From positions 1 through 26,007 of the IMG/VR virus record IMGVR_UViG_3300048629_000014: 26,007 nt of DNA, one strand, 5' to 3'. The position numbers were made by a program, and so were the translations under genes. This stretch comes from a virus (lineage: Duplodnaviria; Caudoviricetes). Shown here one piece after another: positions 119-25,965 of this stretch. A model generated the notes under the pieces. That model was given only the letters and a program-made list of their open reading frames with translations, had not been told where the DNA came from and did no database searches. Numbering within the stretch: position 1 is the first letter of the stretch; every line of letters starts with the position of its first letter.

Positions 119-889
119 ATGACAGATTTATTAAAAGTAAACGGAAACCAAGAAGTAATCACTTCAAGAGAAATTGCAGAATTAACAGGTAAGCAACACG
201 CTCATGTAATGAGGGATATTAGAAGTCTAATTTCTCAACTAACAGACCTTGAATTTAACCAATCCAATTTTGGATTGGTCGATTATAGAGCTGGAAACAA
301 TCAATTAAGAACTCAATATGCACTTACTAAAGAAGGTTCACTTTTACTTATGACAGGGTACAATGTAAACATGAGATTAGCAGTTCAAAAAAGATGGCAG
401 GAACTTGAGGAATCTCAAAATAAATTGCAAATACCTACTTCTTTTAAAGAAGCTCTCCTATTGGCTGTAAAACAACAAGAGCAAATTGAGGAACAAGAGT
501 TGAAATTAGCCGAGAACAAGCCAAAGGTGGAATACCATGATGAAGTACTTGATACGAGTTCTACGCTAACAATTACCTCTATAGCAAAAGAACTTGGTAT
601 GTCAGCTATTGAGTTAAACTCTGGACTACATAGAGCAGGTATTCAGTACAAACAAGGTAGTGTTTGGCATTTATATAGTAAATATGCTAATTGGGGTCTT
701 ACTAAGCTGAGAACACATAAGATTTCAGAAAGTGAAACTCACCACACTACTACATGGACTGAGAAAGGTAGAGAGTTTATTCATTGTGTAGTTAAAGGTT
801 TGAGCGTAGAACACTTAAAACCTACAGTAAATGAAAGACCTTTAAACTTACTTTATAGACTATCTAGTTACAACAAAGCTATATGTTAA
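119..889 (+). CDS. Rha-family regulator with KilA-C/antirepressor C-terminal domain
   Basis: ITSREIAELTGKQHAHVMRDIR (Rha N-terminus), IPTSFKEALLLA linker, KPKVEYHDEVL...TITSIAKELGMSA...TTWTEKGREFI (KilA-C). ATG at 119 preferred over GTG at 107. Confidence 0.85.
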   Translation: MTDLLKVNGNQEVITSREIAELTGKQHAHVMRDIRSLISQLTDLEFNQSNFGLVDYRAGNNQLRTQYALTKEGSLLLMTGYNVNMRLAVQKRWQELEESQNKLQIPTSFKEALLLAVKQQEQIEEQELKLAENKPKVEYHDEVLDTSSTLTITSIAKELGMSAIELNSGLHRAGIQYKQGSVWHLYSKYANWGLTKLRTHKISESETHHTTTWTEKGREFIHCVVKGLSVEHLKPTVNERPLNLLYRLSSYNKAIC

Positions 890-913
890 ACTACATAGTT
901 GTATAGATACAAG

Positions 914-941
914 AAACCCTACCATAAATAGTAGGGTTTTT
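914..941. terminator. Probable bidirectional intrinsic terminator
   Basis: AAACCCTAC/GTAGGGTTT 9-bp stem with A/T tails, between convergent genes. Confidence 0.75.
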
Positions 942-965
942 CTGTGTTCTCGGATTAGTTATTTC

Positions 966-1211
966 TTATTGGAAACCGATCCAAATATCCGCAGGTAATA
1001 CTGTAGTTCCTGCTGAATTAATCTGCGTGCATTTGCAAAAAAGCTGTCTAATAATATCTACAGGTAATATTATAGTCTCCTTGCTTTCCAGAACTACTTC
1101 TACAGTTTCGGTTCCTGACACCGATGCAGGAAATGCAATTACACCACTACTGTGAAATGGTGTGTCGAATGTAGGAGCGTGTACTACTGCTCCAGCTTGT
1201 TCTATAATCAT
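966..1211 (-). CDS. Small hypothetical protein, possibly virion-associated
   Basis: 81-aa ORF, beta-rich composition, last gene of the minus-strand structural run. Confidence 0.6.
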   Translation of the reverse strand: MIIEQAGAVVHAPTFDTPFHSSGVIAFPASVSGTETVEVVLESKETIILPVDIIRQLFCKCTQINSAGTTVLPADIWIGFQ

Positions 1212-1233
1212 ATTTTCTAATTTTTAAAGGTTA

Positions 1234-1479
1234 TTAATTAGCGTGTTTGTACTTCAAATAAGAAAACTCATCTGAAACTATCGAGTATAAAACTCTAAAT
1301 CTGTGGTCGTTCTTATCTATGATAAAAAATTCCACACTACTGTCTAATGGTAAACTTACACCATTTTCAATTAAAACATCCTCGATTTCCTGCCTACTTA
1401 AAGTGTTCTTGAGGTTCTCGGCTGTTTCATACCTTTTAGAGAAAATGTTTTCTCCCATTATTTCTTTTAAATCACTCAT
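1234..1479 (-). CDS. Hypothetical protein
   Basis: 81-aa ORF with ATG start, co-oriented and tightly packed. Confidence 0.6.
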   Translation of the reverse strand: MSDLKEIMGENIFSKRYETAENLKNTLSRQEIEDVLIENGVSLPLDSSVEFFIIDKNDHRFRVLYSIVSDEFSYLKYKHAN

Positions 1480-1505
1480 AATTAGTGCTTATTAAGGTTA
1501 TACAA

Positions 1506-2168
1506 TTAAGGTGTATAGTAAACTAATTCACCATTATACGTAACTATTTCTCCGTTGTATCTCACAATATTTGCTGAGATAGGTGCAACATTGAAATCAG
1601 TTAAAATATTTACTTCTCCTGCTGACCAAGCGTGTCCAGATATTCCATAGAAACCTTCTTGTGGTAAAGTGTAGTCTGCTTCTACTTGTAACAAACCATC
1701 TACAAATACCGACACATGAGAGTCTGTGAAATATACCTCAAAGAATCCTTCTATGTCTGTACCACCACTTGCTAAAGTTGACCAAAAACCGTTCTTGCGT
1801 TGTACAATTTCAATAGTATCACTATTTACTCTTGCACCTACAATATTAGTACTATTTATAAACTTAGCAAAAGGAAGCAGCCAATTATCATTTCCACCAG
1901 GATTACTATAATTTCCTGAAACTACACCTTCAATTTTCTTGTAGTGTTTAAAGTTCAAGTTCTCAGGGTTAATTCCTGATCCTGTTCTCGGAAAAAATGT
2001 TATTCCTTGACCAAAGTTCACCCAACCTAAATGGTCTGGAGCAGCACCATCAACCAACCTCCAATCAGGGTGATTGTCTAGCGGAGAACCAGTTTCACTT
2101 GGTGGGTAGAACTGTACATCTGTTTTCCTATATGGAATTGTCAGTTTATTACCTATTAATGTTGACAT
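1506..2168 (-). CDS. Hypothetical beta-sandwich/lectin-like protein, possibly virion-associated
   Basis: 220 aa, rich in Gly and aromatic residues, C-terminal repeated YNGE[IL]V motif. Confidence 0.55.
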   Translation of the reverse strand: MSTLIGNKLTIPYRKTDVQFYPPSETGSPLDNHPDWRLVDGAAPDHLGWVNFGQGITFFPRTGSGINPENLNFKHYKKIEGVVSGNYSNPGGNDNWLLPFAKFINSTNIVGARVNSDTIEIVQRKNGFWSTLASGGTDIEGFFEVYFTDSHVSVFVDGLLQVEADYTLPQEGFYGISGHAWSAGEVNILTDFNVAPISANIVRYNGEIVTYNGELVYYTP

Positions 2169-2170
2169 AG

Positions 2171-2446: not shown

Positions 2447-2460
2447 AAGTTCTCTACGTT

Positions 2461-4347: not shown

Positions 4348-5166
4348 TTAAGGGTTATCAATTATAGTTACATAGTTCTGAATAGTTTTGACATCAGTAC
4401 CTATACTATTAGAAACTTGTAGAGTTACAGTAAATATTCCTGTAGTCGAATAAACATGAGTAGGATTTTTTACAGCACTAAAGTTTCCATCACCAAAGGC
4501 CCAACTATAACCTGTTGAGTTCTCGGATGAGGTATTCATAAATGATACGGATTCGCCTAGAACTGCAGTAGGGTCTGTACAATAGAAATCTGCAGTAGGT
4601 AAAACTCTTGGTGGAGTAGGTCTATCATTATTATCCAATGCTCTAACAACACCATTACCTACATACAAACCACCTGAAAAACTTGGTGTGTTTTGTGGTG
4701 AGGTTTCCCCTAAAAATTCCTGCTTAAAAGCTGGATATAAATCAGCGTTTGCTTCTAGATAAACTCTCATCTTTCTACCATAAGCATCTGCAATAGTTCC
4801 TTCTTGGTCAGCCAAGAACGAGCTTTCGTTTAGTTCTGCTGAGGTTCCGTTATCAGTATCTCTCTTTACAAGACCGCTATTCTCTGCTTTAAATACCATT
4901 TGGTTTAATCCAAGTGATAAAGCTTCGTGTACCAAAAATGGTTGTAGATATTTTTCGAGAAATCTCTCATTATCACCACCAATACAACAGTCTAAAGTAT
5001 CTTCTTGTAGTTCTGACATAAACCTCTCACCTATAAGGTCAGTAGCTTTTAAGTCTTGAGCTATGATTATGAAAGGAGTAATATACTCATAGTCGAAATT
5101 ACCAACAACACCGCTAAGTTCCTTGAACTTATCCTCTCCAATTAATATAATTTTACTCGTTGCCAT
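4348..5166 (-). CDS. Putative head-tail adaptor with C-terminal PKD domain
   Basis: Directly follows the portal. PKD signature PTADF...VSFMNTS...YSWAFGDG...NPTHVYSTTGIFTVTLQVSN. Confidence 0.7.
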   Translation of the reverse strand: MATSKIILIGEDKFKELSGVVGNFDYEYITPFIIIAQDLKATDLIGERFMSELQEDTLDCCIGGDNERFLEKYLQPFLVHEALSLGLNQMVFKAENSGLVKRDTDNGTSAELNESSFLADQEGTIADAYGRKMRVYLEANADLYPAFKQEFLGETSPQNTPSFSGGLYVGNGVVRALDNNDRPTPPRVLPTADFYCTDPTAVLGESVSFMNTSSENSTGYSWAFGDGNFSAVKNPTHVYSTTGIFTVTLQVSNSIGTDVKTIQNYVTIIDNP

Positions 5167-6364
5167 CGCTTGTTCCTCCTTTCTTAGTTGAGTTTACAGT
5201 ATTCTTTTTGTCGTTTACACTAGCATTAGCCTTATCATCCTTAACATCTTCCGTAGAACCAGATTCTATTAGAAGTTCGTTAACAAACATAATATCGGCT
5301 TCTGTTTTGTTAAACTTTAGTATCTTTTTCAAAGCTCTAATCATAAGTTTTTGTAGTGGAACTACAGAACCTTTTAGAAACATTTGAAATTCAGTATCTA
5401 TTTCATCTGCCTTACTTGAGAAACCTGAGTTAGTTTTCAAACCTGCCAAAGATGGGTACGTTCTATGTGCCGAAATAATCATATCTCTGAACATTGGCAA
5501 CATACGTTCTGTGTACTCACCTAAATTTGGTGGCTCAAATGTGTCAAGTTGTACCTTTTTTGCAGGGTCAGTACCAAAAAACATCATTAGCTTTTGACCA
5601 TGAACACCTTTAAACTTACCTCTTACATAAGTTTCAAGATTGGCTTTATCATCTTCAGTTGGTTCTCCGTTAAAGAAGTTCATTATCATACTTGGAAAGA
5701 AACCATTTGTTACATCGTTTCTATTCAAAGAAGCAACATCATCTTCTAATAAAATGTATTGTACCGCACTCATATAAAGTGGTACTGTATAATACTTTTG
5801 GTTAGGTCTTTTGATTCTTTCTATGATTACTGCTGTATCTGTATCAACATTTTTTGGATCAAATACTGCTAAAGGTCTTGGTTTATGCTTTTTCAAATAT
5901 TTCTTATTCCAATTACTTGAAACGTAAACTGTATCAATCTTTCCTTCTTCATTGTACAAACCTACTCTAACATCTTCATAGTTGAGTCTATTAATACCTA
6001 CTATTCTAGTTCTGGCTGAGTTAAACATAACCTCCCAATAAATAGTTTCAAACATCGCAGCATCACCACTTGTATCGTCAATCAATTCCTCTAGAGATAA
6101 ACCTTCTGTATCAATATCATCAAAGTCCAAGTACTGTTTGCCTTTAGTAATTTCAATCTGAAGGTCTCCGTTAACAAACGTTTTCTTAGAATCGAAAATA
6201 GCAGCATGAGTAGGACTTAATGTAATCAAGTTGGCTATGTACACAGGTAATTGATTGTCAGCACCGAAATAAACATAGTCTCTCACACCTGAAGCGTATT
6301 CCTCAAAATCAGGGATAGTTAACTCAGGTAAAGTACTAAAAATTCCATTATATATGATAGACAT
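5153..6364 (-). CDS. Portal protein
   Basis: 403 aa with YFGADNQLP, SPTHAAI, YYTVPLY, NGFFPSMIM and IISAHR motifs typical of portals in Bacteroidota-type phages. Confidence 0.8.
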   Translation of the reverse strand: MSIIYNGIFSTLPELTIPDFEEYASGVRDYVYFGADNQLPVYIANLITLSPTHAAIFDSKKTFVNGDLQIEITKGKQYLDFDDIDTEGLSLEELIDDTSGDAAMFETIYWEVMFNSARTRIVGINRLNYEDVRVGLYNEEGKIDTVYVSSNWNKKYLKKHKPRPLAVFDPKNVDTDTAVIIERIKRPNQKYYTVPLYMSAVQYILLEDDVASLNRNDVTNGFFPSMIMNFFNGEPTEDDKANLETYVRGKFKGVHGQKLMMFFGTDPAKKVQLDTFEPPNLGEYTERMLPMFRDMIISAHRTYPSLAGLKTNSGFSSKADEIDTEFQMFLKGSVVPLQKLMIRALKKILKFNKTEADIMFVNELLIESGSTEDVKDDKANASVNDKKNTVNSTKKGGTSDGNE

Positions 6365-6383
6365 ATCTAATTGTGTTTTAAGT

Positions 6384-6410
6384 AAGGGTACAGCCGAGAA
6401 CCATACCCTT
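6384..6410 (-). other. Intergenic hairpin containing the GCCGAGAAC motif
   Basis: AAGGGTA (6384-6390)/TACCCTT (6404-6410), extendable by G-U pairs on the minus strand; no strong U-tract. Confidence 0.5.
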
Positions 6411-6427
6411 GTATTAATAACTTACTA

Positions 6428-7285
6428 CTATGTTGAAGGGATAATAATATCCTCTCCAGGTGTGTAGCCTGATTCCGTAGGTGGGTTTGTTGTACTAATA
6501 GTATAACGAACACCATATTTAACAACCTGCTCTTCCGAAGTTTGAGCTATGCTTATAACTATCGGAGAACTAGTACCTGCTTCATATTGGTATGCACCAC
6601 CATCAACAGAATATCTAACTTCGTAACCATCAGCAGAAGCTACATCATCAAAAGCAACAGATAGTTCACCTGCAACTTCGTCATAACTTGCTTGTACATT
6701 AGAAGGTCCTGATAAGTTAAATGTTAGGAACTCACCTGATTCATCAATAAGTATGTCGTCAAGTTCAGCATGACGTGCGTAGTTTAATTCCTTACCTGTC
6801 CAAGTTACCTCGTAACCTTGTAAAGAAGCACCCTCAGCACCTGTTCTACTTCCACCTGAAGTCATATCCACACCATTTTCCTCACCGTAAACTATATACT
6901 TTGGTTTACCATTACTCTCATAATTGTAAAGTTCGGCAACTATAATTTGCTTTCCTTTAGCAATGTTAGAAAGTTCTACAGAAGTATCGTGTTCTACGCC
7001 AAGCAATGTACCATTTATTGATAGTTCTACGAATGAAGTACCAAGTTTAGGGTCAGCAGACATTTCCTCTGAAGCATCCCCCAAGTCTATTGGTAAAGGA
7101 AACTTGTAGAATTTCAAAGGTTGTCCTGTTCCGTCAAGAATGTCGTATATTCTCTTTGGGTATTTAGGTGCTACTACTACATCACTTTCATAGGCTCCAA
7201 TCCAAAGAGTTTTAATACCTGACATCCCATCTTTACATAAACTTTCTCCGAAAGCTTTAGTAATATTTAGACACTTACTACCCAT
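6428..7285 (-). CDS. Tail tube protein paralogue 2 with C-terminal FN3/Ig-like domain
   Basis: Highly similar to 7290-7916 (SKCLNITKAF, SADPKLGTSFVEL, SLQGYE.WTGKE), plus a tail GPSNVQASYD...FDDVASADGYEVRY. ATG at 7285. Confidence 0.7.
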   Translation of the reverse strand: MGSKCLNITKAFGESLCKDGMSGIKTLWIGAYESDVVVAPKYPKRIYDILDGTGQPLKFYKFPLPIDLGDASEEMSADPKLGTSFVELSINGTLLGVEHDTSVELSNIAKGKQIIVAELYNYESNGKPKYIVYGEENGVDMTSGGSRTGAEGASLQGYEVTWTGKELNYARHAELDDILIDESGEFLTFNLSGPSNVQASYDEVAGELSVAFDDVASADGYEVRYSVDGGAYQYEAGTSSPIVISIAQTSEEQVVKYGVRYTISTTNPPTESGYTPGEDIIIPST

Positions 7286-7289
7286 GATA

Positions 7290-7916
7290 TTAAGGATTTG
7301 TAGGAGGTGCAACAACAATCACACTATCTCCGTTAGTTGGATCAGAAGTAAGAGTAATACCCTCTACGAAAGGAGCATAAGCTCTTTCTTTACCTGTCCA
7401 CGCAAGTTCATAACCCTGTAATGATGCAGATTCAGCTCCTGTACGAGAACCACCACCTGTCATATCAACACCGTTCTGCATACCATAAAGTATGTAAACA
7501 GGAATTTCTACCTCTCCACCTGAACCATCAGGTACAGATTGTTTGGTATAAAGTTCAGCAAGTATGATTTGTTTACCTCTCATCATACTTGTAAGTTCTT
7601 GAGCATAATCTTTACGTAACCCTAAAAGAGTACCGTTGATTGTTAACTCAACAAAACTTGTTCCTAGCTTTGGGTCAGCAGAAGCTTCTTCAACTGCATC
7701 ACCAATATCAATAGGCAAAGTAAATTTCCAAAATGGAACATCAGTACCTTCAGTTTTCACACTTGTAACAACATTCTCACTATTAAGTAATACTTCTGTG
7801 TTATGCTCAAATGCACCTACCCAAAGATTCTTGATACCTGCCATAGCTGACTTACACGTATTGCCTTCAAAAGCTTTTGTTATATTTAGACATTTGCTCA
7901 AATCTCTTATGCACAT
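7290..7916 (-). CDS. Major tail tube protein (paralogue 1)
   Basis: C...C...GIKNLW N-terminus and G.QNG.D...G...TG......GY.L...GKE pattern typical of tube proteins next to capsid genes in such phages. Start uncertain (ATG 7916 or TTG 7901). Confidence 0.7.
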   Translation of the reverse strand: MCIRDLSKCLNITKAFEGNTCKSAMAGIKNLWVGAFEHNTEVLLNSENVVTSVKTEGTDVPFWKFTLPIDIGDAVEEASADPKLGTSFVELTINGTLLGLRKDYAQELTSMMRGKQIILAELYTKQSVPDGSGGEVEIPVYILYGMQNGVDMTGGGSRTGAESASLQGYELAWTGKERAYAPFVEGITLTSDPTNGDSVIVVAPPTNP

Positions 7917-7940
7917 CTTTTCAATGCGACTTTGTTTGTA

Positions 7941-8456
7941 TTAATTATATTTCCAAATAAACCCTTTAGAAGATTTAGAAATACCTAATAAATTATTTTG
8001 TATTCCTGATCTACTTATTCCAACTATATGTGAAGCCTCTGTAACACTACCAAATGTATCTACAAAAACACCATCTAATGTATATTGAGAAATAGACACT
8101 TTGTATTTTTCACTTTTACCTTTGCTGTTGTTCTCGGCCCAAGTCATTAGTTGAATATTATTAAACGTATAGGGTAATTCAGACTTTATTCTATCTACAG
8201 AAGGTTTTAAATCTTTATGATAACCAGAGTCTTTCCAATCATTATATAACTCATGAAACTTAGGTTGACTATAAAGCCAATCTCTAAGTTCCTCCTTGCT
8301 ATAAGTTGGATAAGCGTGTCCTCTTTTCTTAGAACTTGCTCTCTGAGAACCATATATAACAGATATTAAACCTTTCTTAGTTCTATAATATTTAAGTTGT
8401 GTTTCACTTCTCACCTCTTCGGGTGTTATAACAATATTTTGTTTTGTATTAGACAT
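7941..8456 (-). CDS. Putative free-standing homing endonuclease (HNH-like core plus NUMOD1/IENR1 domain)
   Basis: PSVDRIKSELPYTFNNIQLMTWAENNSK nuclease-like motif. QYTLDGVFVDTFGSVTEAS...GFIWKY NUMOD1-type C-terminus. Confidence 0.75.
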   Translation of the reverse strand: MSNTKQNIVITPEEVRSETQLKYYRTKKGLISVIYGSQRASSKKRGHAYPTYSKEELRDWLYSQPKFHELYNDWKDSGYHKDLKPSVDRIKSELPYTFNNIQLMTWAENNSKGKSEKYKVSISQYTLDGVFVDTFGSVTEASHIVGISRSGIQNNLLGISKSSKGFIWKYN

Positions 8457-8479
8457 CTTTTAAATATTTATCGGTTAAT

Positions 8480-8510
8480 AAAAAAGCCCTGCCTCAGCGA
8501 GACAAGGCTT
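8480..8510 (-). terminator. Intrinsic terminator after the major capsid gene
   Basis: Minus strand AAGCCTTGTCTC-GCT-GAGGCAGGGCTT followed by TTTTATT. Confidence 0.8.
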
Positions 8511-8537
8511 CATTTAATTTTGATTTTCTACTACCTA

Positions 8538-9431: not shown

Positions 9432-9475
9432 GATTTTTAATACCTATTTCTAGGGTTTTGTTTTCAATTTAACAA

Positions 9476-10138: not shown

Positions 10139-10152
10139 ATCATAAATTATTT

Positions 10153-10683: not shown

Positions 10684-10868
10684 TTGCCAAAGTTTACACT
10701 TATATAAAGGTACAAACCTCTGTATTAGCCGAGAACTCTATACTTGAGAGAGTTTTACCTACATTTTCAACTTCTTTAGGTGCTTGTAAACGTTTGTAAA
10801 CGACTACCATTTTTGGGTAATTTTTCATCCAAATAGGAATTTTAATGACGAACGTTTCTAAATAGTAA

Positions 10869-16600: not shown

Positions 16601-18288
16601 TGTATTTTTATTAAAGCTCCAAAATCTACACCGTTCTCTTCTTTGTAGTTCTTATTTAGAAAGGATAAATTCTCTTTCCATTTCAAATCAATAGTTTTAG
16701 GTAAATATTCTGAAGCAGGTTTTATATTAAACTTAGACTTCCTATCTACCATTGGTGTAATATCTAGAGTAGGTGTAGCATTTTGTTTCCAAATATCTAT
16801 TAATGGCATTATCATAAACTCTAAAGCATCACCTTTGTATCGGTACTTAATAACACTTTTTGTTATCATAAGAAACTCTTTTAATAACTCAAGTTGTGTC
16901 ATATCACCAAAGTAACTACCCATCTTTCTAGCATTTGGATCAATTACCATAGATGGAACAGTTATCCCACTATTAACACCTATTGTAAAAGTTACCCACA
17001 TTCCATCAGGTGCTGTTGTTACAGTATTCCTGAGTTCTAGGTAAACTTTATCACCTTCAGCTAAAGTTACTTCTGCTGTAAGTTCTACTCTAAAGTAAAT
17101 ACCACCAGCTATTATCTGTTCTGAGGCTAAGTCTGTTTTTGTTGTACCATCTGCAGTTTCATGAACTAGATAAATAAACATTTCTAAATCAGAAGTGTCA
17201 ATATCTGTGAAGTAATTACCACCAAATACAGAGGCAAACCCAAAGTCACCATCATTAGGAGCTACAAAATTGTAGTTTGACCACAAAGTAGTATCACTTA
17301 CATTATCTAGTTTTATTTTATGCATTAAAGTTTCAGGTAATGTACCAAATACAAATTCAGCATCATAAGTTTTAGATACTTTAGCATACTCAGCTTCAGG
17401 TATAGCTGTAGATTTAGTTTTAGAAGAACCAGGTAATTGTAAGAATAAGTTATCGAATTGTTTATTACCCTTATAAAAGTCCATATCAGCCGAGAACTGC
17501 ATCTGTTCTAGCTCACCTGTAGATGAGATAGGTACAAACTTACGCTCATTTAACATATTGTCTATAAGTGGTATAAACTTCATTGCAGGCGGTAACTTAT
17601 AACAATCAATCGCTTTCATTATTACATGAGCACCACTACTACTATTTAACAAACCGTAGAAAGGTGTATATTCCTCAGTATCTGTTTTTACTCTATCCTC
17701 TTCATGATAAAAACCATACCCAACATTATCTTGTAGTGGGTAAAACATCTCAAATGTATCATTGAAAGAACCATCATCAAACTGAAGTTGTCCATTCCAA
17801 CTATCTATTATTTGTTGATTGCTTGAATAAGTGTGATTAAACTTCTCTAACCACTTTAAATCCTTAACTTTTAATGCTTCAAGAGCTGTTTTTAAAGTAT
17901 TTAATCTGCCAAAAATTGCTACTTTGTAAATATCGGCATTAGAATCATAGTTTATTAATTGAATATTACCATCCAATATTACAGCACCATCATTTTTAAC
18001 TTGACATTGGTAAACTTTAATAGCAGGGTCGTGTCTAACATCACCTTTATAGTCAGTATGTGTAGGTGATACCAAATGTAAATCTCCGAAATCATTAAAG
18101 AACTCAGCATTAACTTCTGTACCCATCAAATCAAACTCATGTACATACTCGGAACCTACTTTAGTAAAAGCTTCCAAGTCTAGTACATCAAAGTTTATAA
18201 GCACAGCAAGTTTAGTTCCTGAATAGAGTTTAGTCCATTCTCCAACACCTGTTGAGCTATTTCTTTTATATCCTAGTAATTCTAACAT
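13606..18288 (-). CDS. Large tail tip/hub protein with multiple C-terminal FN3-like domains
   Basis: 1560 aa next to the tape measure. Repeats PKNLTL..WDAVPDATEY, PTGLTA..WHAVPNASAY, PQNLTS..WDVVANAENY, PTNLVA..WDDVSNADLY. Confidence 0.75.
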   Translation of the reverse strand: MLELLGYKRNSSTGVGEWTKLYSGTKLAVLINFDVLDLEAFTKVGSEYVHEFDLMGTEVNAEFFNDFGDLHLVSPTHTDYKGDVRHDPAIKVYQCQVKNDGAVILDGNIQLINYDSNADIYKVAIFGRLNTLKTALEALKVKDLKWLEKFNHTYSSNQQIIDSWNGQLQFDDGSFNDTFEMFYPLQDNVGYGFYHEEDRVKTDTEEYTPFYGLLNSSSGAHVIMKAIDCYKLPPAMKFIPLIDNMLNERKFVPISSTGELEQMQFSADMDFYKGNKQFDNLFLQLPGSSKTKSTAIPEAEYAKVSKTYDAEFVFGTLPETLMHKIKLDNVSDTTLWSNYNFVAPNDGDFGFASVFGGNYFTDIDTSDLEMFIYLVHETADGTTKTDLASEQIIAGGIYFRVELTAEVTLAEGDKVYLELRNTVTTAPDGMWVTFTIGVNSGITVPSMVIDPNARKMGSYFGDMTQLELLKEFLMITKSVIKYRYKGDALEFMIMPLIDIWKQNATPTLDITPMVDRKSKFNIKPASEYLPKTIDLKWKENLSFLNKNYKEENGVDFGALIKIHTNNRYAKESLEYTGVFEPFITNAIQSINEDVHSLLMPRNFKDIEKFTTINPGYRLFYWDLTLRAIQKDDGTSDSISLATGIENPGANLSVHSYPFCHSKLLEEVNYYKVLGSNDLAPGEKVYEANWALTGGYDLEYKTDPYVMPLPHQIGTFWYAQYKEILDGMYEYDSKVLDIDIHLLPEDYAKLNEFAPVIFDNLKFRILSYSDYDVMDRYPVNFKLIRDQWGASTNLEIPKNLTLTFDSNTRDLVGTWDAVPDATEYTVSLVTDGTVYKTFMVTGTTFTEADVPHKNVDREVYYTLRASTNGGNVSPVANSPVVTIPFSKLSNPTGLTAEYLPETNNTLHGTWHAVPNASAYEIKTYLGDGTYLDTINLAASETEFYYILEQAYPTYYYTLKAIGNDMYQDSDAVTSPQTSEDALDTPIFNRYVWGDVNKLLQIGVDRVDNATDYDFVTYRNGVAIDTRNILDDGTNNPYFNLTVNQESSEQTYYTTVVANDSTGTWDSSQMATSIDVVIPALPAQDVIGIRITEANAAIWELDTPINADTSTITFMLDANLLNEQALIGGDHGNASTVPYFLLLGVGSGDTQITGMEDGSTEMLLDNKICQPVIGQDEYDMPSGYSVNSMVADGLQHTLKTTFDNTDGDLLKYVGNNGGYTGAQLEGVLTGLIIDGDVFDIAGAYDPFTNATEVHSAGGNVLRLTSGTSEWAGPRPALEAPQNLTSAWEDVNDVFTGTWDVVANAENYKIKMFVDGVEDYTATNATPSFTAYVHPTTSDQEVYYEVYAVSSIADDSPVSTSSVYTVPAIPSLSAPTNLVATYDEATDTIHCEWDDVSNADLYTVWVYVDTSTKDISDVTSSTHSFSYAQDGSTHQASFRVVAKDTTGEYQDSPGVLSAEVEIPAEVINPPDHSPTIDQLNSCIKRTTDEFYGAVVAEPDAVQYMFKFQWGTQIQEVTVDAPDIDAVQYMYTEADEIGYLQVKYSNSAGWGSYGPPYQVDDCQE

Positions 18289-18292
18289 AAGA

Positions 18293-19465
18293 TTAAACTT
18301 TAGGTAAAGGTTTTGCTACCTCTACAGTTAATTCTATTTGACTTAATGGTTCATTTGTGCTTGACCTATAAGGTATAATATCAGCTTGAATAAATGCTCT
18401 TTGTATATCCGAAGAACCTGTCATAAGTATGAAAAACTCTGTGGCTAAAGCATAATCAGCAACAGCATTCATACGGTCTTTATCCATGTAATCTGTTTTA
18501 GCTTGAAACTTCATACGTGGTTTAATATTCCACTTACGTTTAGTTCCATCGTATTCCTCTAGTTCTTGGCTATCCCTAGTAATACCTGCTGTGTTCTTCA
18601 TAGTAAATGGTATTGTTGCCCACATAAAACTTGTATCTAGAAACAACAAATCAAATGAGAAATCATAATCCATATTACATTCAAAGTTTACAGTAAGATT
18701 AGTAGTCATTAAAGTTACAGTACTACCACTTACAGTAGCAGTTTCTACTATCTCTAAAGTTTTGTGAGTAAGACCTTCTGCTATGTTACCAATAACTAAC
18801 TCTAAATAGTTATTCTCAATATCATACATAGGTTTGCTATAGAATATCTCGTGCGTAGAACCATCAGCATAGTGATCTATAAAGTTTACTGTAACCTGTT
18901 GGTTAGTATGACCGCTATGTTTTACTACTTGGTAATACAAACTCTTCAAAGAATTTTGTTGCCAAGACATAGTTTTATTCACAATCTTATCAGGATTACT
19001 TGGGTCAGTAGGTTCAAATATTACAGAACCTTCTCCAAGTTTAGGTGTCATGTGTCCATATTTGTAAGCTTCTCTACTTACTCCACGAACAGCTACAAAA
19101 GAAACATCGCTTGCAGGGTCATACACTTTCAAACCCCAAACACCAAACTCATCTTTCGAAATAGTGTAAGGTCTTAATGTAACATGGGCAAAACCATCAT
19201 CTACAATTAGTACTTCTTTAACAAAAGTTACTCTAGGTGTAGGTTTAGAAATAGAGCGTAATATTACTTTTCCTATACCAACTTCGTAATCAACATCAGC
19301 TTCGTAAGCATCAGCCTCAGCATCTGCTCTATAAACTCCATCTATTACAATCTCAACTCCTACTTTAGTTCTATACGCAATAGTTGAGGTACTTAGAGTA
19401 ATATCTAATCCATAACTTATTGGTACAGCTTTTGTTGGGTCTATATTTATCAGGTTAACATTCAT
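18293..19465 (-). CDS. Putative tail structural protein (distal tail-like)
   Basis: 390 aa, beta-rich, upstream of the tail tip gene. C-terminal LLFLD...WATIPF...TDYM pattern. Confidence 0.55.
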   Translation of the reverse strand: MNVNLINIDPTKAVPISYGLDITLSTSTIAYRTKVGVEIVIDGVYRADAEADAYEADVDYEVGIGKVILRSISKPTPRVTFVKEVLIVDDGFAHVTLRPYTISKDEFGVWGLKVYDPASDVSFVAVRGVSREAYKYGHMTPKLGEGSVIFEPTDPSNPDKIVNKTMSWQQNSLKSLYYQVVKHSGHTNQQVTVNFIDHYADGSTHEIFYSKPMYDIENNYLELVIGNIAEGLTHKTLEIVETATVSGSTVTLMTTNLTVNFECNMDYDFSFDLLFLDTSFMWATIPFTMKNTAGITRDSQELEEYDGTKRKWNIKPRMKFQAKTDYMDKDRMNAVADYALATEFFILMTGSSDIQRAFIQADIIPYRSSTNEPLSQIELTVEVAKPLPKV

Positions 19466-19467
19466 GA

Positions 19468-19887
19468 TTACTCGTTTATAAATTTATCACAATTAGCTTC
19501 TCTACCTACTTGAACTTCTACCTCAACTTGATAACCTTCTGTTTGGTCCTCTTGATACAAACCTGTTGGTTCGTAGGTATGTTCATTATCGTATCTACTT
19601 ACATAAAGGTTTTTGTTTTCCATAACCAAATCACGTATAATCTCTAGCGTAGAACTCTGAATTGATAATCTATCACTTAAATTAGATTTTACTTTATCCG
19701 TTACAGTAAGCGTAAGCTTTACTTTAAAGTCTGAGGCATCTACCAAAGATAGATATGCTCTAGGATATTGCTTTCCTGATTTACTTACACTATAAGCAGT
19801 TTGGTCTCCATAACCTGAACTGTTTACATCTACGTGTTGAATGTATCTCTTTAGTAAATCATCTACTACTTCTTCAAATGTTTTCAT
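19468..19887 (-). CDS. Putative tail terminator/completion protein
   Basis: 139 aa with GYGD...YPRAYL motif; size and position fit. Confidence 0.55.
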   Translation of the reverse strand: MKTFEEVVDDLLKRYIQHVDVNSSGYGDQTAYSVSKSGKQYPRAYLSLVDASDFKVKLTLTVTDKVKSNLSDRLSIQSSTLEIIRDLVMENKNLYVSRYDNEHTYEPTGLYQEDQTEGYQVEVEVQVGREANCDKFINE

Positions 19888-19888
19888 A

Positions 19889-20341
19889 TTAAGAAAATTT
19901 AGCGTTTTTTAAATTCTTTTTCATCCAAGCTATTTCGTTTTGTTCTACAAGAGCAGCATACATACTTTCGAAAATACGTTGTATCTCCTTATCATTGTGT
20001 ATCTTTTCTATGTAGTTCTTGGCATTAAATCCCTCTTTTTGTATTGACTTAGCAATAGCAAATTGAACACCTTTGTCAGAAGTGTACTTACTAAAACTAC
20101 TAGGTGGTGGCATCTTGTTACCATACTTGTACGGAGAACCAGGAACTTTCCTCTTTGTTCCCGAAACACCTTTGTCTTGGTATTGGAAATATTTATCTAC
20201 AGTAACAATTACAACATCGGTATCTTTCTTAAACTTAGCCGAGAACGAGAAATCACCTTTGGTAATCTTCTTCATCCTTTCCTCTAGTAAGAAAAGATGT
20301 GTGTTTACTATCACCGTATAGTCTGTATCTATAATTCCCAT
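19889..20341 (-). CDS. Putative tail completion/neck protein (HK97 gp10-like)
   Basis: YFQYQDKGVSG...KMPP...FAIAKSIQKEG motif. Confidence 0.6.
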   Translation of the reverse strand: MGIIDTDYTVIVNTHLFLLEERMKKITKGDFSFSAKFKKDTDVVIVTVDKYFQYQDKGVSGTKRKVPGSPYKYGNKMPPPSSFSKYTSDKGVQFAIAKSIQKEGFNAKNYIEKIHNDKEIQRIFESMYAALVEQNEIAWMKKNLKNAKFS

Positions 20342-21149
20342 TACTTTGTTTTGTTAAAGTTTACTGCTTCATCATAACTTAGTCTATTCTTATAAACTGC
20401 ATAAGCAAAAGCTTCACTTATTGGTGAAAGTAGAGCTTCTGTTCTTTTCATAAAATCACCACCTGTAAGCATATACACGAAAGCGAGCCATCCTAGCTCT
20501 CCTGTCTCATTGCTTGGTACTATCTTTGTAGTCTTAGGAATTTTCAACAAACTATTGTTGTATTCCTCTGTTATTTCATGATGGCTCGTAATGTAAAATT
20601 TACAACTGCTCTGACTACAACGTATGACATCTTATCTAGGAAAATCTTTTCCCTGAGTTCTAGGCTAGTGTCTGACTCTGTACTATAAGGTTTAGTGTTG
20701 TACAAAATATTGTTTTGTTTTGTTACTTCTCTGTAAAGTACTGCCATTATCTTTTCAATGTTATTCTCTACATCAGATAACAAATCTACTAAATCAATAT
20801 AAGCTCCTGTCTCAATAGTTTTGAAATTTGGTTCTAAGCCATACTTTATACCATCTATTTCAATAATCCTATAATCCTCAATGTTAATCTTTTCCTTTGG
20901 TAAATCTGTGAACAATGGAATTACCACGTTAGCAACTTTGTTGAAAACTTCTATCGGAAAAGCTCTTACTTCCTCAATATTAATCTTGTTAAAGTGTGCT
21001 ATTAATTGAGCTGTTCTCTCTAAATCGCTGAGGTTTTCCACCTTCATCAACTTGTTGAAAACTTTAACATCGTTAATTGTTAATTCTTTTATAGAATTAG
21101 GAATAGTTAAAGTAAGCTCTTCTACATTTATTTCTTTTTCTTTCTCCAT
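20341..21149 (-). CDS. Tail assembly chaperone, long -1 frameshift form (about 269 aa)
   Basis: Slippery A-AAT-TTT at 20601-20595. The -1 frame is open (YITSHHEITEEYNNSLLKIPK...) and runs into the 20341-20550 ORF, which lacks an ATG start. Confidence 0.65.
20571..21149 (-). CDS. Tail assembly chaperone, short form
   Basis: 192 aa with IPNSIKELTI, YGLEPNF..I..GAYIDL and IMAVLYR motifs; ends just after a slippery heptamer. Confidence 0.65.
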   Translation of the reverse strand: MEKEKEINVEELTLTIPNSIKELTINDVKVFNKLMKVENLSDLERTAQLIAHFNKINIEEVRAFPIEVFNKVANVVIPLFTDLPKEKINIEDYRIIEIDGIKYGLEPNFKTIETGAYIDLVDLLSDVENNIEKIMAVLYREVTKQNNILYNTKPYSTESDTSLELREKIFLDKMSYVVVRAVVNFTLRAIMK

Positions 21150-21164
21150 ATTATTATAAAGGTT

Positions 21165-22375
21165 TTAGATAAATGAATATTTACCTACGTTTCTTTTTAG
21201 TTTATCTCTACAAGCATAAATCACACTATCGGTGTAGTGGTCGTTACCATCCTGTAGCTTATCAATACTTTCTCCATTCTTTGTAAGCCATTCTAAATCT
21301 TCAAACTCTCTTACCAAATTTGGATCATCATAGTACACATTAATAACGTAATCATTCATACTATGTACTGCTTCTTCTTTATGTCCAGGGTATTTCTTTA
21401 TGCCGAGAACTGTACACTTTGACATACCATCTAACTCTTCAATCAAACGTGGTGCCGAACTATCAGCAATAATTACTTGTCGTTGAGGTACTGCTTGGTA
21501 CATATCAGCTATTTGTTGAGTACTTAATCCTGAACCATAACCATAACCTCTAATCCAAAGCTCACCATTATAAAACTTAACATTCGATAGTGTAGTAGGG
21601 TCAGTAAATCCGTAGTCAGAACCCCAAGAACTCCACTTCTCGTTTGAAGGCCAAGTATTAACAATGTTGAATTTAGGAAAGGCTGCAAGTTCTGCGTTTG
21701 CCATGTACCTACCCTCAAGATATACTGCTCTAAACCTTGCATTCTTACTTCCTCTGTACTCTATCTCTTCAATAAGTTCATCAGGTAAGTTCTCAAGATT
21801 GTCTTTATAAGTAGAATGAATATACTTTGTTTTAGGATTCTCTAGTAATTCAGTAATCCATTGCTTTCTACGTGTAGGATTTTGTGTAATGATAATACTA
21901 CCACTTAGTAGTCGCATTCCTACTTGGCGGAGAACACCATCAGCTTCAGGACTTAGATTAAGCTCATCAAATAAAGCATAGTCTGCCTCTATTCCTGTGA
22001 ATTTATCTTCTGCATTGTGTTCACCATGACTCATGAAATAAACTACACTACCATTTGGATAAGTAAGTGTAGCTTCCTGCTTATTGAAACTGTCTTTATT
22101 CCAATAACTACCAGCTATTTGTTTATAAGGTTTGATTAAGTTCTTTTTGGTAATAGGAACTGTTAAACCTGCCACAATAAATACTAAAGGGTTCTCACTT
22201 TTCACAGCTTTTAAATGAAATAGCTGTAAAGCAGAGTACGTCTTTGAACTTCGAGTACCAGTCAACCCCCTGTGCTAAATAAGTATCTAAAGCCTGAGTT
22301 CATCGCTTGGATGTACTTTTCGCCTACAATACCTATCTTTAGCACAGGGGTAGTATTTGTATTTACGTTATTCAT
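21165..22375 (-). CDS. terL: Terminase large subunit (PBSX-like), interrupted by an 8-nt insert in Walker A; about 400 aa if joined
   Basis: Segment 1, 22375-22265, reads MNNVN...RYLFSTGG then TGA. Segment 2, from 22256, reads TRSSKTY... with Walker B YALFDE, NP motif, HSTYKDN, nuclease GSDYGFTDPT and DHYTDSVIYA. Confidence 0.85.
22267..22350. repeat. Perfect 13-bp inverted repeat in the terL 5' segment
   Basis: CCCCTGTGCTAAA (22267-22279) and TTTAGCACAGGGG (22338-22350), 58-nt spacer. Confidence 0.9.
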
Positions 22376-22908
22376 AATCTTCTTCCTTTGTTGTCTGTTC
22401 TAAGTATATGCTTCAATGTATTTACATTTATACCAAATCTATCTGCTACATCTGCTCTACCATAGTTTACTCCTTTGAGCTTTTTCTGAGTGGCAACGTA
22501 TCTTCTAACTTCTTTTACAAAATCATCAGAATATTTACCCATACCATTGTTCAAACCTTTTTGAGGTTTAGCCTTGCCGTAAATATACCCTCTTCTTACG
22601 TTTTCAGAGTGAGGTATATACCAAAGATTATCTAAATTATTGTTTAACGAATTTCCATCTTTATGGTCTATATCGTAATTACTTCCTGGTCGTTCTCCTT
22701 TAAAAGTTAAAACTTCAATTACGTGAACAGAAACTGTTTTATACTCTCCTTCATCACTTTTCAACATTGTTTTATAATAACCACCTGTGACAGCAGGTTT
22801 TAATACTTTAACCCTTCCTGTTCTTTTGTAATTAAGACTTCTAATTCTTCCAAGATTGCTAACTTCATAGCCTGTGAATCCTGGTATCACTTTCCATATT
22901 TCTTCCAT
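22372..22908 (-). CDS. NUMOD4-HNH homing endonuclease
   Basis: EEIWKVIPGFTGYEVSNLGRIRS (NUMOD4), IDHKDGNSLNNNLDNL..IPHSEN (HNH), C-terminal HTH-like segment. Its stop overlaps the terL ATG (ATGA). Confidence 0.9.
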   Translation of the reverse strand: MEEIWKVIPGFTGYEVSNLGRIRSLNYKRTGRVKVLKPAVTGGYYKTMLKSDEGEYKTVSVHVIEVLTFKGERPGSNYDIDHKDGNSLNNNLDNLWYIPHSENVRRGYIYGKAKPQKGLNNGMGKYSDDFVKEVRRYVATQKKLKGVNYGRADVADRFGINVNTLKHILRTDNKGRRL

Positions 22909-22911
22909 AAC

Positions 22912-23259
22912 TTATTCATCTAAAAATTTATCTAAATCTTTCTTGGCATCTTTGTTTTGTACTACAACTTTTAAGTTATCACCATTAATGTTTATAGTAC
23001 CTTGGTTTAGGTTCTTGGTAAATGACAAATACTTTAAAGCCGTGTCAACATCATCCATGTTATTTTCTACAGTTTCTATAGCTTTATCTCGTAAAGCAAT
23101 TCGTGCTTCTTCAACTACACCTCGTAGGTCAAACTCACGTATATACTTATAGATTGTTTCTCTACTTGCACCATAAGCTTTCACTACTTTACTTATATTA
23201 CCTCCTGCATTGTATATATTTTCTGTGAGGTCCTTCTTTGTTATATTTAATTTCTCCAT
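22912..23259 (-). CDS. Putative terminase small subunit
   Basis: 115 aa with N-terminal HTH (GNISKVVKAYGASRETIYKY) and a helical oligomerisation region; upstream of terL. Confidence 0.7.
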   Translation of the reverse strand: MEKLNITKKDLTENIYNAGGNISKVVKAYGASRETIYKYIREFDLRGVVEEARIALRDKAIETVENNMDDVDTALKYLSFTKNLNQGTININGDNLKVVVQNKDAKKDLDKFLDE

Positions 23260-23297
23260 AATATGTTTTCCTCCTTTCTGTACTATTATAAAGGTTT

Positions 23298-23328
23298 AAA
23301 GCAAACCCCAACTTATGCTGAGGTTTGC
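23298..23328 (-). terminator. Probable intrinsic terminator or hairpin
   Basis: Minus strand GCAAACCTCAGC-ATAA-GTTGGGGTTTGC (12 bp including G-U pairs), then a short TTT. Confidence 0.55.
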
Positions 23329-23337
23329 CACAATAAA

Positions 23338-23826
23338 CTACACACGTATTTTACTAAAACCTCTGAACTTGTCAGAGTTCTTCTCGAAAGTGTCAGCACA
23401 AACAAATATTACTTTGTACTTACCTTCAAGATGTACTGCCTTATCTCCTGTTCTCAGCAAAGTAATTAGATTCTTTCTACTAGCCAATTTGAATAGTAAT
23501 CTCAAATCAATAACTACGCTTCTTCTATCTTTGGAAACTACTACAAGGTTTTGCTTTACTTCCATAGCATAATCAAGTACGCTTTCCATAGTAACTTTAT
23601 CACCAAGTATTACAAAGTTATCAGGTGCTTGTTTAGGCTGAGAACTGGATTCTTGTGTTTCCTGGTTTTCTTCCTCTACCTCTTCCTTTTCAGTTAATTG
23701 CTCTTCAGCCATATCACCAATAGCTTCTTTTGACTTTGCCTCAGCTTCAGCTTTTTTACGTGCTTTAGTAGCTTTGATTTTCTCGTTAATCTTTGCCTGC
23801 TCTTCAGGTGTTCTTTTTGTTGACAT
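23338..23826 (-). CDS. Hypothetical protein with basic N-terminal helix and acidic linker
   Basis: 162-aa ORF with A/T-rich leader. Confidence 0.65.
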   Translation of the reverse strand: MSTKRTPEEQAKINEKIKATKARKKAEAEAKSKEAIGDMAEEQLTEKEEVEEENQETQESSSQPKQAPDNFVILGDKVTMESVLDYAMEVKQNLVVVSKDRRSVVIDLRLLFKLASRKNLITLLRTGDKAVHLEGKYKVIFVCADTFEKNSDKFRGFSKIRV

Positions 23827-23847
23827 AATATTAATATTTATTGTTAC

Positions 23848-24246
23848 TTAATTATAAAGGGTGTAGTCTAGTTCTGCAGTTGTAGCAACATAAACTAAAT
23901 CTACTTCTTTCTTTTTTACCTCTTTTGTTTTCCTATCGTACACACTTTGTCGATATTCTAAAACTGCAAAGGTTACTTGACCTCTCAAAAATTTGATAAT
24001 CTGAGTAGGATTGTAACCTCTTATTTTCATCTGCTTCTTACGTAAAGCAGTACGGAATTTGCCGAGAACTCTCAACATTATTTCACTTTGCAAATCATGT
24101 AAACTTGGTTGGTGACTTAATAACTCAGGATAACCCCAAAGTGTTTGTTCTATAACCTCTTTATAAAACAAAGCTAAAGTATCATCTACCTTACCAAGTT
24201 TCTTAGATTCAACTAATGATGATATGATTTGCTGTGCTGTTAACAT
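23848..24246 (-). CDS. Hypothetical helical protein, possible sigma-region-2-like regulator
   Basis: 132-aa ORF; only a weak by-eye resemblance to gp55-like late sigma factors. Confidence 0.45.
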   Translation of the reverse strand: MLTAQQIISSLVESKKLGKVDDTLALFYKEVIEQTLWGYPELLSHQPSLHDLQSEIMLRVLGKFRTALRKKQMKIRGYNPTQIIKFLRGQVTFAVLEYRQSVYDRKTKEVKKKEVDLVYVATTAELDYTLYN

Positions 24247-24602
24247 TACTTACTTACATTATCGAAAGGTTCAAATTTTGTCCAAACTTTACCTCCTTCA
24301 AAGTCTATTCCCCAAGTAACTATACCAAGGTTAACTCCATAAGTAGTACCCATATCAAGACTAATACCATAAGTATTATCTTTATCTTCAAAACTAACAA
24401 GAGTTATTCTTTGTAATTCTTGTTTAGTAGGTGTTTTTGTACCGAGAACTTCGTAGATAATCTTTCTAATTGTGTTGTCGATAGCTTGTTGCATAACCTT
24501 TACAGTAGTGTCCATCATTTCCTTGTACTCAGAAGTTTCCTTATCGGAGAACTCAATAGGTTTTGCACTGTTTTTAATTACTTTCATCTTTGCCTTTTCC
24601 AT
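24246..24602 (-). CDS. Hypothetical protein
   Basis: 118-aa ORF coupled to the next gene by a TAATG overlap. Confidence 0.65.
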   Translation of the reverse strand: MEKAKMKVIKNSAKPIEFSDKETSEYKEMMDTTVKVMQQAIDNTIRKIIYEVLGTKTPTKQELQRITLVSFEDKDNTYGISLDMGTTYGVNLGIVTWGIDFEGGKVWTKFEPFDNVSK

Positions 24603-24605
24603 ATC

Positions 24606-24950
24606 TTAAAATCCTAATGAATTGTACATTTTGCTTTCCTCGCTCCAAATTTGCATTCTCTCGTTAATCTCAGCATCTGCTTTTGCTCTACGTTTCTTTT
24701 CCTCAACCAACATTTGTTTAATAAGCTTGATGTTCTCGGCAGTAGAAGGAACTTTTGTAAGAGCTTCTTTTTCTGCTTCAAGTTTACTTACCTTGTTCTT
24801 TAACTCGGTAATTTTAGCGTAGAACTTAGCCTCAGTTCTATTGATAGATTTAAGTACATCTTCTGCTGTAACTCCATCTACAAAATCCCAGTGATTTTTA
24901 TAATGTCTGCTTTCTATAATTCTATCTTTAAATAAATCAACTACACTCAT
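24606..24950 (-). CDS. Hypothetical coiled-coil protein
   Basis: 114-aa ORF, heptad-rich. Confidence 0.65.
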   Translation of the reverse strand: MSVVDLFKDRIIESRHYKNHWDFVDGVTAEDVLKSINRTEAKFYAKITELKNKVSKLEAEKEALTKVPSTAENIKLIKQMLVEEKKRRAKADAEINERMQIWSEESKMYNSLGF

Positions 24951-24963
24951 ATTATCATATCGT

Positions 24964-25239
24964 TTAATTTGGTTCTACAAGTATGAAAGTATCTTCTACT
25001 ACATTCTCGCTTTGTTGGATTTTTATACCACGAAATCTAGGGTTTTCTATATTTACAGGACTAGCCATCATAGACATTATGTGGTAAATCATGTAGTTGA
25101 AATCTACAGGATGAAGTACTACCTTGTCAGGATAAATTTTAGAGAAACCTTGTTTATCTCTAGCTCTACAAAAATCCCTTATCCCTATATTCAATCTATC
25201 AATAAGTTTATTGATTCTATGTTTAGTTTCTACATCCAT
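24964..25239 (-). CDS. Hypothetical protein
   Basis: 91-aa ORF, tightly packed with its neighbours. Confidence 0.6.
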   Translation of the reverse strand: MDVETKHRINKLIDRLNIGIRDFCRARDKQGFSKIYPDKVVLHPVDFNYMIYHIMSMMASPVNIENPRFRGIKIQQSENVVEDTFILVEPN

Positions 25240-25242
25240 AAC

Positions 25243-25710
25243 TTATAACTCATCTTTATATTTACCTCCGCCAGTAGGACCAAAACCTTGGTTTAAATCC
25301 TTGCTATCACTATTGAATACTCTAGCATCTTCACCTGTGTTTATACCTTTTGGTAGAGAAGTGTTCTCAGATGTAAGCTGTGGCTCTGTGGTATGGTTTT
25401 TAGTGAACTTATTATACTTAATAATGAACTCTTCTGTTGCTTTAACCAACTTGTCTTTGAATTGTTCTACGCCAGGACTGTGAGACTTCTCCGAGAACAG
25501 AACCAAACCCTCTCTAAAAAACCCTGTACCTACTTGATAATTTACAAGTAGTGTTATTTGGAAATAGTCAGGCTTTTTTGCTACCCAACTTTCATCAGTA
25601 TCAACATCGGTTATTCTTAAAGTTTGTAGTTCAGGTTCTGCTCCTACTGCTAATAAGCTGGTAAGCATATCATCTACCCAAACTACTTTTGTGTTATAAA
25701 ATCTTGACAT
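25243..25710 (-). CDS. Hypothetical protein
   Basis: 155-aa ORF, tightly packed with its neighbours. Confidence 0.65.
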   Translation of the reverse strand: MSRFYNTKVVWVDDMLTSLLAVGAEPELQTLRITDVDTDESWVAKKPDYFQITLLVNYQVGTGFFREGLVLFSEKSHSPGVEQFKDKLVKATEEFIIKYNKFTKNHTTEPQLTSENTSLPKGINTGEDARVFNSDSKDLNQGFGPTGGGKYKDEL

Positions 25711-25731
25711 AACGTTTTACTTTTCCGAGAA

Positions 25732-25965
25732 CTACTTCCCTGTTACTAAATACAATTTGGCACTTGCTCCATCTCTTTTCTTAACTCCAGAAAGTCTTGT
25801 TAAATAATGACCAAGTCTTACGCTCCTACTTCTACTAACAGGTAAACCACAGGCAGTTGTTAACTCTGCTGTGGTAAACCATTTAGCACTAAACTCTTTA
25901 CGCTTTAATACCTTTGTGATTGTATCACCAAACTCAGGTATAAATAAAACCTTGTTATCTTTCAT
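25732..25965 (-). CDS. Small basic protein, possible winged-helix DNA binder
   Basis: 77 aa; WFTTAELTTACGL...VRLGHYLTRL helix-helix-wing pattern. Confidence 0.5.
   Translation of the reverse strand: MKDNKVLFIPEFGDTITKVLKRKEFSAKWFTTAELTTACGLPVSRSRSVRLGHYLTRLSGVKKRDGASAKLYLVTGK

Follow-up and report, generated by a model that had tools for sequence, protein, structure and literature searches.

Why does one asymmetric octamer, CCGAGAAC, recur along the DNA of a tailed phage in which fewer than one copy is expected? The window analyzed here is the whole 26,007-base virus record IMGVR_UViG_3300048629_000014, a contig of 34.2% GC that occurs in hydrothermal-vent metagenome runs. The word is present 13 times on the plus strand and 11 times as its complement, GTTCTCGG, a total of 24 copies or ∼1 per 1,100 bases. 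All 24 start positions agree with those of the original prediction, which was made from the letters alone, and the same number of copies, 17, extends to GCCGAGAAC.

A word enriched at the DNA level

CCGAGAAC is the commonest octamer of the contig, with 24 copies compared to 18 for the runner-up, AATATTTA; the numbers expected from order-2 and order-3 Markov models are 0.18 and 0.57. The window counts 33 genes, which contain 18 copies against a mean of 0.21 and a maximum of 2 in 1000 synonymous-codon shuffles, an enrichment of ∼90-fold. A protein-coding cause is ruled out by the synonymous-codon and codon-order shuffles, and a tandem or dispersed repeat is ruled out by the differing flanks of the copies. 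The word is read as AEN, SEN, TEN, PRT, GRE, VLG, and FSA/FSE and is spelled in genes by rare codons (CTC is 17 of 689 Leu codons, GGC 23 of 535 Gly, and CGC 3 of 258 Arg). It is also in excess between genes, where 6 of the 24 exact sites occupy the non-coding 5% of the DNA (p = 0.001). The use of several frames, rare codons, and intergenic positions had all been predicted. Masking the word revealed no second comparable one among 6- to 8-mers (best log10 p −7.7), and there were 0 Rfam matches. These data identify the word as a DNA-level signal beyond what protein coding explains, for which some reader, a protein or a process, probably exists. Two metagenome runs that hold sites unchanged exclude a library or assembly artefact. 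Contigs of run X2, which may be the source of the record, equal positions 6000–25983 without difference except for a 12-base gap; 18 of the 24 sites fall within them. Run X3 dates from 2018 and belongs to a different study; in it sites 21403, 21624, and 21928 are unchanged.

The octamer belongs to a broader motif, C-x-x-AGAAC, whose 74 copies are half of all 147 AGAAC in the contig. The excess in genes depends on the two middle bases: CG is found 18 times vs 0.16 in the null, GT 12 vs 0.40, and GG 6 vs 0.28. Weaker excesses accompany TG (8 vs 1.4), CA (5 vs 0.9), TT (6 vs 1.4), and CT (4 vs 1.0), and the remaining nine middles are at chance level. The excess disappears when the leading C or any letter of the core is changed, except for a weak AGAAA signal (4 vs 0.9). 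Expressed as fold enrichment, CGT variants reach 29 and CGG 19, and CTG and CCA reach 5- to 6-fold. The seven one-mismatch CGGAGAAC positions of the original prediction are all correct, but it overlooked larger classes, CGTAGAAC (12 copies) and CTGAGAAC (9), as well as CTTAGAAC (6), CCAAGAAC (5), and CCTAGAAC (4). Of the 52 strong sites, 33 have a G directly in front, T is slightly favored at −4, and no strong second half of a bipartite site was found within 40 bases of the word.

The sites are not strand polarized, as predicted: the exact octamer divides 13/11 (p = 0.84), the seven-variant set divides 36/31, and relative to gene direction 30 sites are sense and 29 antisense. A weak left-minus/right-plus trend of the exact octamer (p = 0.024) comes from one of seven sets tested, and wider sets gave p = 0.13 and 0.62. 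Spacing along the contig is random. Neither regular spacing nor 10.5-base phasing was detected, and close site pairs are no commoner than random spacing predicts. The median distance from any end to a correctly oriented site is ∼0.55 kb for the seven variants and 1.4 to 2.2 kb for the exact octamer. In genes that look mobile the word is no sparser than in core genes, with four sites in the antirepressor gene and three in the NUMOD gene.

The phage, its host, and the reach of the word

The contig covers a tailed-phage structural module, with genes for an antirepressor, tail proteins, portal, capsid, protease, tape measure, terminase, and endonucleases of the HNH and NUMOD types. About one third of the genome probably lies outside it, and with it the genes for replication and recombination. 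The terminase matches Parabacteroides, Bacteroides, and Flavobacterium phages at ∼30% identity, the capsid and portal match Nonlabens phage P12024 (35.7 kb) alone at ∼23%, relatives of the antirepressor are mostly in Bacteroidota genomes, and a Shine-Dalgarno sequence is absent ahead of most gene starts in the window. Based on these features, we infer that the host is a Bacteroidota. The word was enriched in 0 of 48 genomic loci that carry antirepressor relatives.

The packaging genes lie on the minus strand at 21165–23259 and comprise an SPP1/PBSX-like terL (21165–22375, interrupted near its 5' end), an HNH gene, and a probable terS (22912–23259). The terL product matches PBSX family TIGR01547 below the cutoff (E = 3e-13), and the sole match in a solved-structure search is 2WBN, which we take to be SPP1 G2P, a headful enzyme. 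This likeness suggests that packaging is headful. The contig is mostly downstream of the probable terS, and most of it would then be downstream of pac.

The original prediction proposed searching relatives and candidate hosts for the enrichment and examining conservation at the motif positions, and neither extended the finding beyond this phage. Scans with terL and capsid gave one close relative (locus L001/L122), with the same gene order and 51% identity in terL; a capsid scan of metagenomes gave no close relatives. The 16.5 kb of L001/L122 contain 6 copies of CNNAGAAC vs 9 of a control and have no enriched word. None of its 21 codon-aligned sites carries the word, which suggests that the word overrides codon preference in the vent phage. 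The same peptide can be coded otherwise: GLEP is GGA CTT GAA CCA in the relative vs GGC TTA GAA CCA in the vent phage, and LRT behaves likewise. The terL site shows a conservative change, VVG to VLG, with V at the L in 8 of 12 homologues. Amino acid identity to the relative at the sites (28 of 73) equals the 39% background.

More distant phages were also poor in the word. Among terL-related viral loci of at least 8 kb, none of 62 (from 82) has more than 3 exact copies, and the best own octamer of any of 109 (from 162) reaches a log10 p of −8.9 vs −26.7 in the contig. Three paired-motif scans of viral contigs, the first covering 23 of 64 parts, returned mostly GC-rich chance matches (81 loci of at least 1.5 kb and 199 of at least 3 kb). 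One locus, L432, was considered as a word-sharing phage (p = 1.8e-6, picked on the motif pair) and rejected; its genes are unrelated, and it has 28 CNNAGAAC vs 13 control in 34 kb. A 28% GC locus, seen in part, has 4 exact copies along 12 kb. Of cultured phages the nearest is P12024L; it encodes Erf and YqaJ and is without such a word.

The host scan covered 401 Bacteroidota, 121 Marinilabiliaceae, 301 Flavobacteriales, and 5 further genomes, ∼790 distinct genomes that are samples from which the true host may be absent. None approaches the phage density of 1 per 1.1 kb. The densest has 1 per 8.5 kb, and its sampled 20 kb are 69% GC, a density likely explained by Ala-Glu-Asn codons. Sampled low-GC genomes have ∼1 copy per 30 to 45 kb, and many genomes have far fewer. 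The 9-mer peaks at 1 per 26 kb in Marinilabiliaceae, equal to the control, and at 1 per 43 kb in Flavobacteriales. A Marinilabiliaceae genome, G450, was rejected as the host: its 9-mer count is 3.5-fold the control (46 vs 13), but GCGTAGAAC is found 10 times vs 26, with no strand skew in 400 kb. The same 400 kb (L490–L509) contain two leading-strand-biased words, GGAGGGGT (27 vs 2) and (GG)GTTAGGGG, which could be repeats or the KOPS/Chi-like signal of that genome. No paper that reports the phage word was found, nor any on over-represented octamers in Flavobacterium phages; subscription papers and supplements were outside the search.

A possible Chi-like switch and its rivals

The reading that fits best is that (G)C-x-x-AGAAC is a Chi-like signal at which a host end-resection enzyme of the AddAB/RecBCD type gives up degrading phage DNA and begins to repair and recombine it. 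We hold it tentatively, at somewhat less than even confidence. If packaging is headful, the genome ends would be permuted and would need recombination through terminal repeats. The host enzyme would enter from a phage DNA end or a restriction break, and from either side it would meet a correctly oriented word within a median of ∼0.55 to 2.2 kb. Degradation would then stop and repair or recombination begin, and restriction cuts would be survived.

Breaks may also arise internally, because a purge of palindromes points to phage hosts that are rich in restriction enzymes. Eight palindromes (CCGG, GCGC, GAATTC, GATATC, CAATTG, CATATG, CAGCTG, and GTATAC) number 0 in genes vs 10 to 20 expected on both strands; for example, CCGG is 0 vs 18, GAATTC 0 vs 16, and GTATAC 0 vs 19.5. 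GATC is at 23% of expectation in genes, whereas CCWGG is not depleted (42 vs 43.5). The word itself is unlikely to be a restriction target since such sites are avoided in phage DNA, and the palindromes are purged while the word is strongly enriched.

The closest layout is that of the Chi array of phage P1. The P1 study describes Chi there as the commonest octamer, nearly random in orientation, present in non-coding DNA, read in several frames, and dense next to pac (bioRxiv 10.1101/2021.07.08.451572, Subramaniam & Smith). The first four of these marks are directly visible in the window. The original prediction set the lack of polarity apart from Chi, and this contrast fails with P1, which has 31 plus and 19 minus Chi sites in total. 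Its first 26,007 bases, the dense pac-side part and a segment chosen after the fact, contain 12 plus and 12 minus sites, similar to the 13 and 11 seen here. P1 is also a headful packager, a property that in the vent phage is deduced from terL only. The vent word is short, asymmetric, and over-represented beyond codon usage, as expected of Chi. Chi orientation goes with the type of DNA end, polar in cos phages and on both strands in headful P1; the two-strand layout of the vent word and its PBSX/SPP1-like terL may suit ends of the P1 kind. The arrays differ in that the vent phage uses another word with a graded two-base middle that is not known to be the Chi of any host, no host with a dense word is at hand, and there is no density gradient within the contig. 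As far as layout shows, the word would work like the P1 Chi array; membership in the Chi class is not established.

The lambdoid phages LLS and MD8, which have no Rec module, provide a second comparison. According to that study, their octamer is selected against codon usage and near-cognate variants are frequent, as in the vent phage, and lambdoid phages follow a rule of "Rec module or Chi" (PMC12315714). P12024L, with its Erf and YqaJ and without the word, is in line with this rule as one distant case. The presence of the word in mobile-looking genes is weakly consistent with a word set by the host or with fast gain.

Several observations weigh against a Chi-like signal. In the same account, the LLS and MD8 sites are polar (20/23 and 32/32) and clustered at the right end (PMC12315714), whereas the vent sites are unpolarized and randomly spaced, with no density gradient along the contig. 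The contig does not include the replication/recombination module. A phage that hoards Chi would lack its own Rec module and nuclease inhibitor; none is encoded in the 26 kb, but the early region lies outside them. The nearest relative has no enriched word, and none of the ∼790 candidate-host genomes is dense in it. No host-side signal was detected in these genomes, and no Bacteroidota Chi was described among the papers found. GTTCTCGG has 4 of 8 letters in common with E. coli Chi. Chi ranks 21st among octamers in E. coli and 43rd in Pseudomonas aeruginosa according to the two studies (PMC12315714; bioRxiv 10.1101/2021.07.08.451572), and a CG-rich word is unlikely to rank among the commonest octamers of an AT-rich host. 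The original prediction had left the function as an open list; recombination or end protection fits it best and is unproven, and nicking, repressor-operator, and restriction-decoy functions fit poorly.

The word may instead be private to the phage, with a reader whose gene lies in the third of the genome that is missing, either a replication or recombination loader or a coating protein that protects, compacts, or marks the DNA as self. This is the main rival even if we consider it unlikely. It would explain why the word is not enriched in the ∼790 candidate-host genomes; a strict core with a graded middle resembles a protein-binding energy landscape, and the sites are denser where coding constraint is absent. 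It is harder to reconcile with the nearest relative, which shares gene order and 51% identity in terL without the enriched word, with mobile-looking genes at least as dense in the word as core genes, and with irregular site spacing. Nor is there a candidate reader among the 33 window proteins, including atlas searches of two right-end proteins. A more speculative proposal, which we rate somewhat lower still, is that the word is the password of an undescribed self/non-self system in which a protein of the host or the phage spares or coats C-x-x-AGAAC DNA and destroys DNA without it. Such a word would have nothing to do with Chi and leave no trace in host chromosomes, and it would be one of a group of genome-wide words private to Bacteroidota phages.

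It is improbable that the word marks self against a host defense as the preferred context for Dnd-type phosphorothioation at GAAC/GTTC or for a methylase. The core holds GAAC, a common Dnd motif, the base at −1 is always A, and the palindrome purge indicates a phage under heavy defense pressure. A study of Salmonella reports a preference for A or C at −1 of modified GAAC, and the published context prefers C at −2 with K and G downstream (PMC9521924). The vent word has the GAAC core and the A at −1 but G or T at −2 and a fixed C at −4, and thus lacks the C expected at −2 of a Dnd site. The enrichment is confined to AGAAC that has a C four bases before its GAAC; a C, G, or T directly in front of GAAC gives no excess (9 vs 14.8, 33 vs 32.5, and 46 vs 52.8). 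A modification target would also be expected to occur often in the host chromosome, which was not observed in any genome searched.

We place still less weight on the absence of any selected function, in which biased host repair or methylase-linked mutation of the HIP1 or Vsr kind drives near-sites into the word. Deamination of CCG yields two products, which are the CTG and CCA variants, and the sites are unpolarized and random. However, the CGT and CGG variants (29- and 19-fold) exceed CTG and CCA, the contig is CG-depleted overall (314 vs 742), and the host chromosome should be marked even more than the phage, which was not found in the genomes searched.

There is little reason to believe that the word comes from a naturally competent host as a DNA uptake sequence that transformation copied into a temperate phage. 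Uptake sequences of the Neisseria (DUS) or Haemophilus (USS) type are asymmetric, unpolarized, and present about once per kb in the host chromosome. The vent word is an asymmetric 9-mer, unpolarized, found inside and outside genes at ∼1 per 1.5 kb, and the convergent pair 11269/11296 is predicted to fold (z −2.7). An uptake sequence needs thousands of host copies, but the top 9-mer density is no higher than the control, no chromosome carries the word at ∼1 per kb among the genomes searched (the true host may be absent), and close pairs are not in excess. Repressor operators or stoperators, programmed nicks, and KOPS/SRS-like translocase signals are equally doubtful: they are polar or tied to promoters, and although the word is asymmetric and enriched between genes, its sites are balanced between sense and antisense rather than following transcription close to promoters or gene starts, 18 of the 24 exact copies lie inside genes, and a separate palindromic operator-like array exists at 10869–11011.

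Site positions, neighboring features, and implications

The first exact site is on the plus strand in the Rha/KilAC antirepressor gene (510–517, read as AEN). Minus-strand sites follow at 946–953 (intergenic), 1414–1421 (AEN), 1984–1991 (PRT), 2302–2309 (GRE), and 4519–4526 (SEN), and an intergenic plus-strand site is at 6394–6401. Two further minus-strand sites lie in the NUMOD endonuclease gene (8130–8137), which is absent from the 2018 relative, and in the prohead protease gene (10555–10562, AEN). A 620-base intergenic region has five sites on both strands within 10729–11303: exact copies at 10729 (+), 11204 (−), and 11269 (+), a CTG variant at 11140 (+), and a CGG variant at 11296 (−). The convergent 11269/11296 pair is just past a gene end. 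The same region includes five copies of a 14-base near-palindrome, GTAAC-A/C-TTTG-W-W-AC, at 10869–11011 upstream of the protease and capsid genes. This array gives 10 strand-matches vs 0.6 expected, is distinct from the word, and resembles a set of operators or an origin.

Exact sites at 13472 (−) and 13501 (+) span 13472–13508. The latter pairs with a one-mismatch inverted copy, CCGAGGAC, in a hairpin predicted on the minus strand at 13465–13515 (−21.4 kcal/mol, z −4.4), just upstream of the tape-measure gene. A minus-strand site at 14377–14384 (AEN) is in a large tail gene. Plus-strand sites are at 16268–16275 (VLG), 17490–17497 and 20239–20246 (both FSA), 21403–21410 in terL (VLG), and 24062–24069 and 24442–24449 (both VLG). 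The last three are 24732–24739 (−, AEN), 25491–25498 (+, FSE), and 25725–25732 (+, intergenic).

The 12 CGTAGAAC variants start at 558−, 805+, 3588+, 3798+, 5252+, 6991−, 7024−, 14815+, 18854+, 19648+, 24818+, and 25464− (span 558–25471), and all 12 are in genes vs 0.42 expected. The seven CGGAGAAC variants are at 2082+, 5662−, 6563+, 11296−, 20132+, 21928+, and 24545+ (span 2082–24552; 6 in genes vs 0.31), and the nine CTGAGAAC variants are at 707+, 1959−, 8343+, 9283−, 9737+, 11140+, 23450−, 23638+, and 25363− (span 707–25370; 8 in genes vs 1.3). The 15 weaker variants, CCAAGAAC, CCTAGAAC, and CTTAGAAC, are distributed over 4556–23018 at 4- to 5-fold above the null.

The terL gene is interrupted in its Walker A region at 22257–22267 on the minus strand. 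The frame from the ATG at 22375 ends in STGG followed by TGA (22264–22262), and homologues read on as STGGTRS. The two frames are set apart by eight extra bases, GGT-TGA-CT-GGT, in which the stop is flanked by matched Gly codons. These bases are unchanged in run X2, and the terL of relative L001 is continuous. A short ribosomal hop, re-initiation at an overlapping TTG, and a broken gene are the candidate explanations. For a hop, a comparison is offered by the 10-nucleotide terminase inserts of Streptomyces phage Hau3, as given in that report (PMC10732093). No special RNA fold was predicted at the interruption.

Three other features were noted. The NUMOD endonuclease gene (7893–8448), between the major capsid and tail-tube-like genes, is skipped in the contig of run X3, and from this comparison it is a mobile insertion. 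Two neighboring paralogues of PHROG 19091 at 6428–7916 are 71% alike over 111 bases and are probably a duplicated tail-tube gene; the close relative has one copy, which matches both. Upstream of terS, a 132-residue protein encoded on the minus strand at 23848–24246 has a weak likeness to sigma-70 region 2 and is a possible late-gene activator.

The finding rests on one partial genome with no relative that shares the word. If the reader is phage-encoded or a defense protein, the word would represent a new kind of self-label on viral DNA. If the word is Chi-like, it would be the end-resection signal of a member of the Bacteroidota, a phylum without a described Chi among the papers found, and it would provide a concrete word with ranked variants for Bacteroidota AddAB. 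Phages could then expose host signals that are invisible in host genomes.

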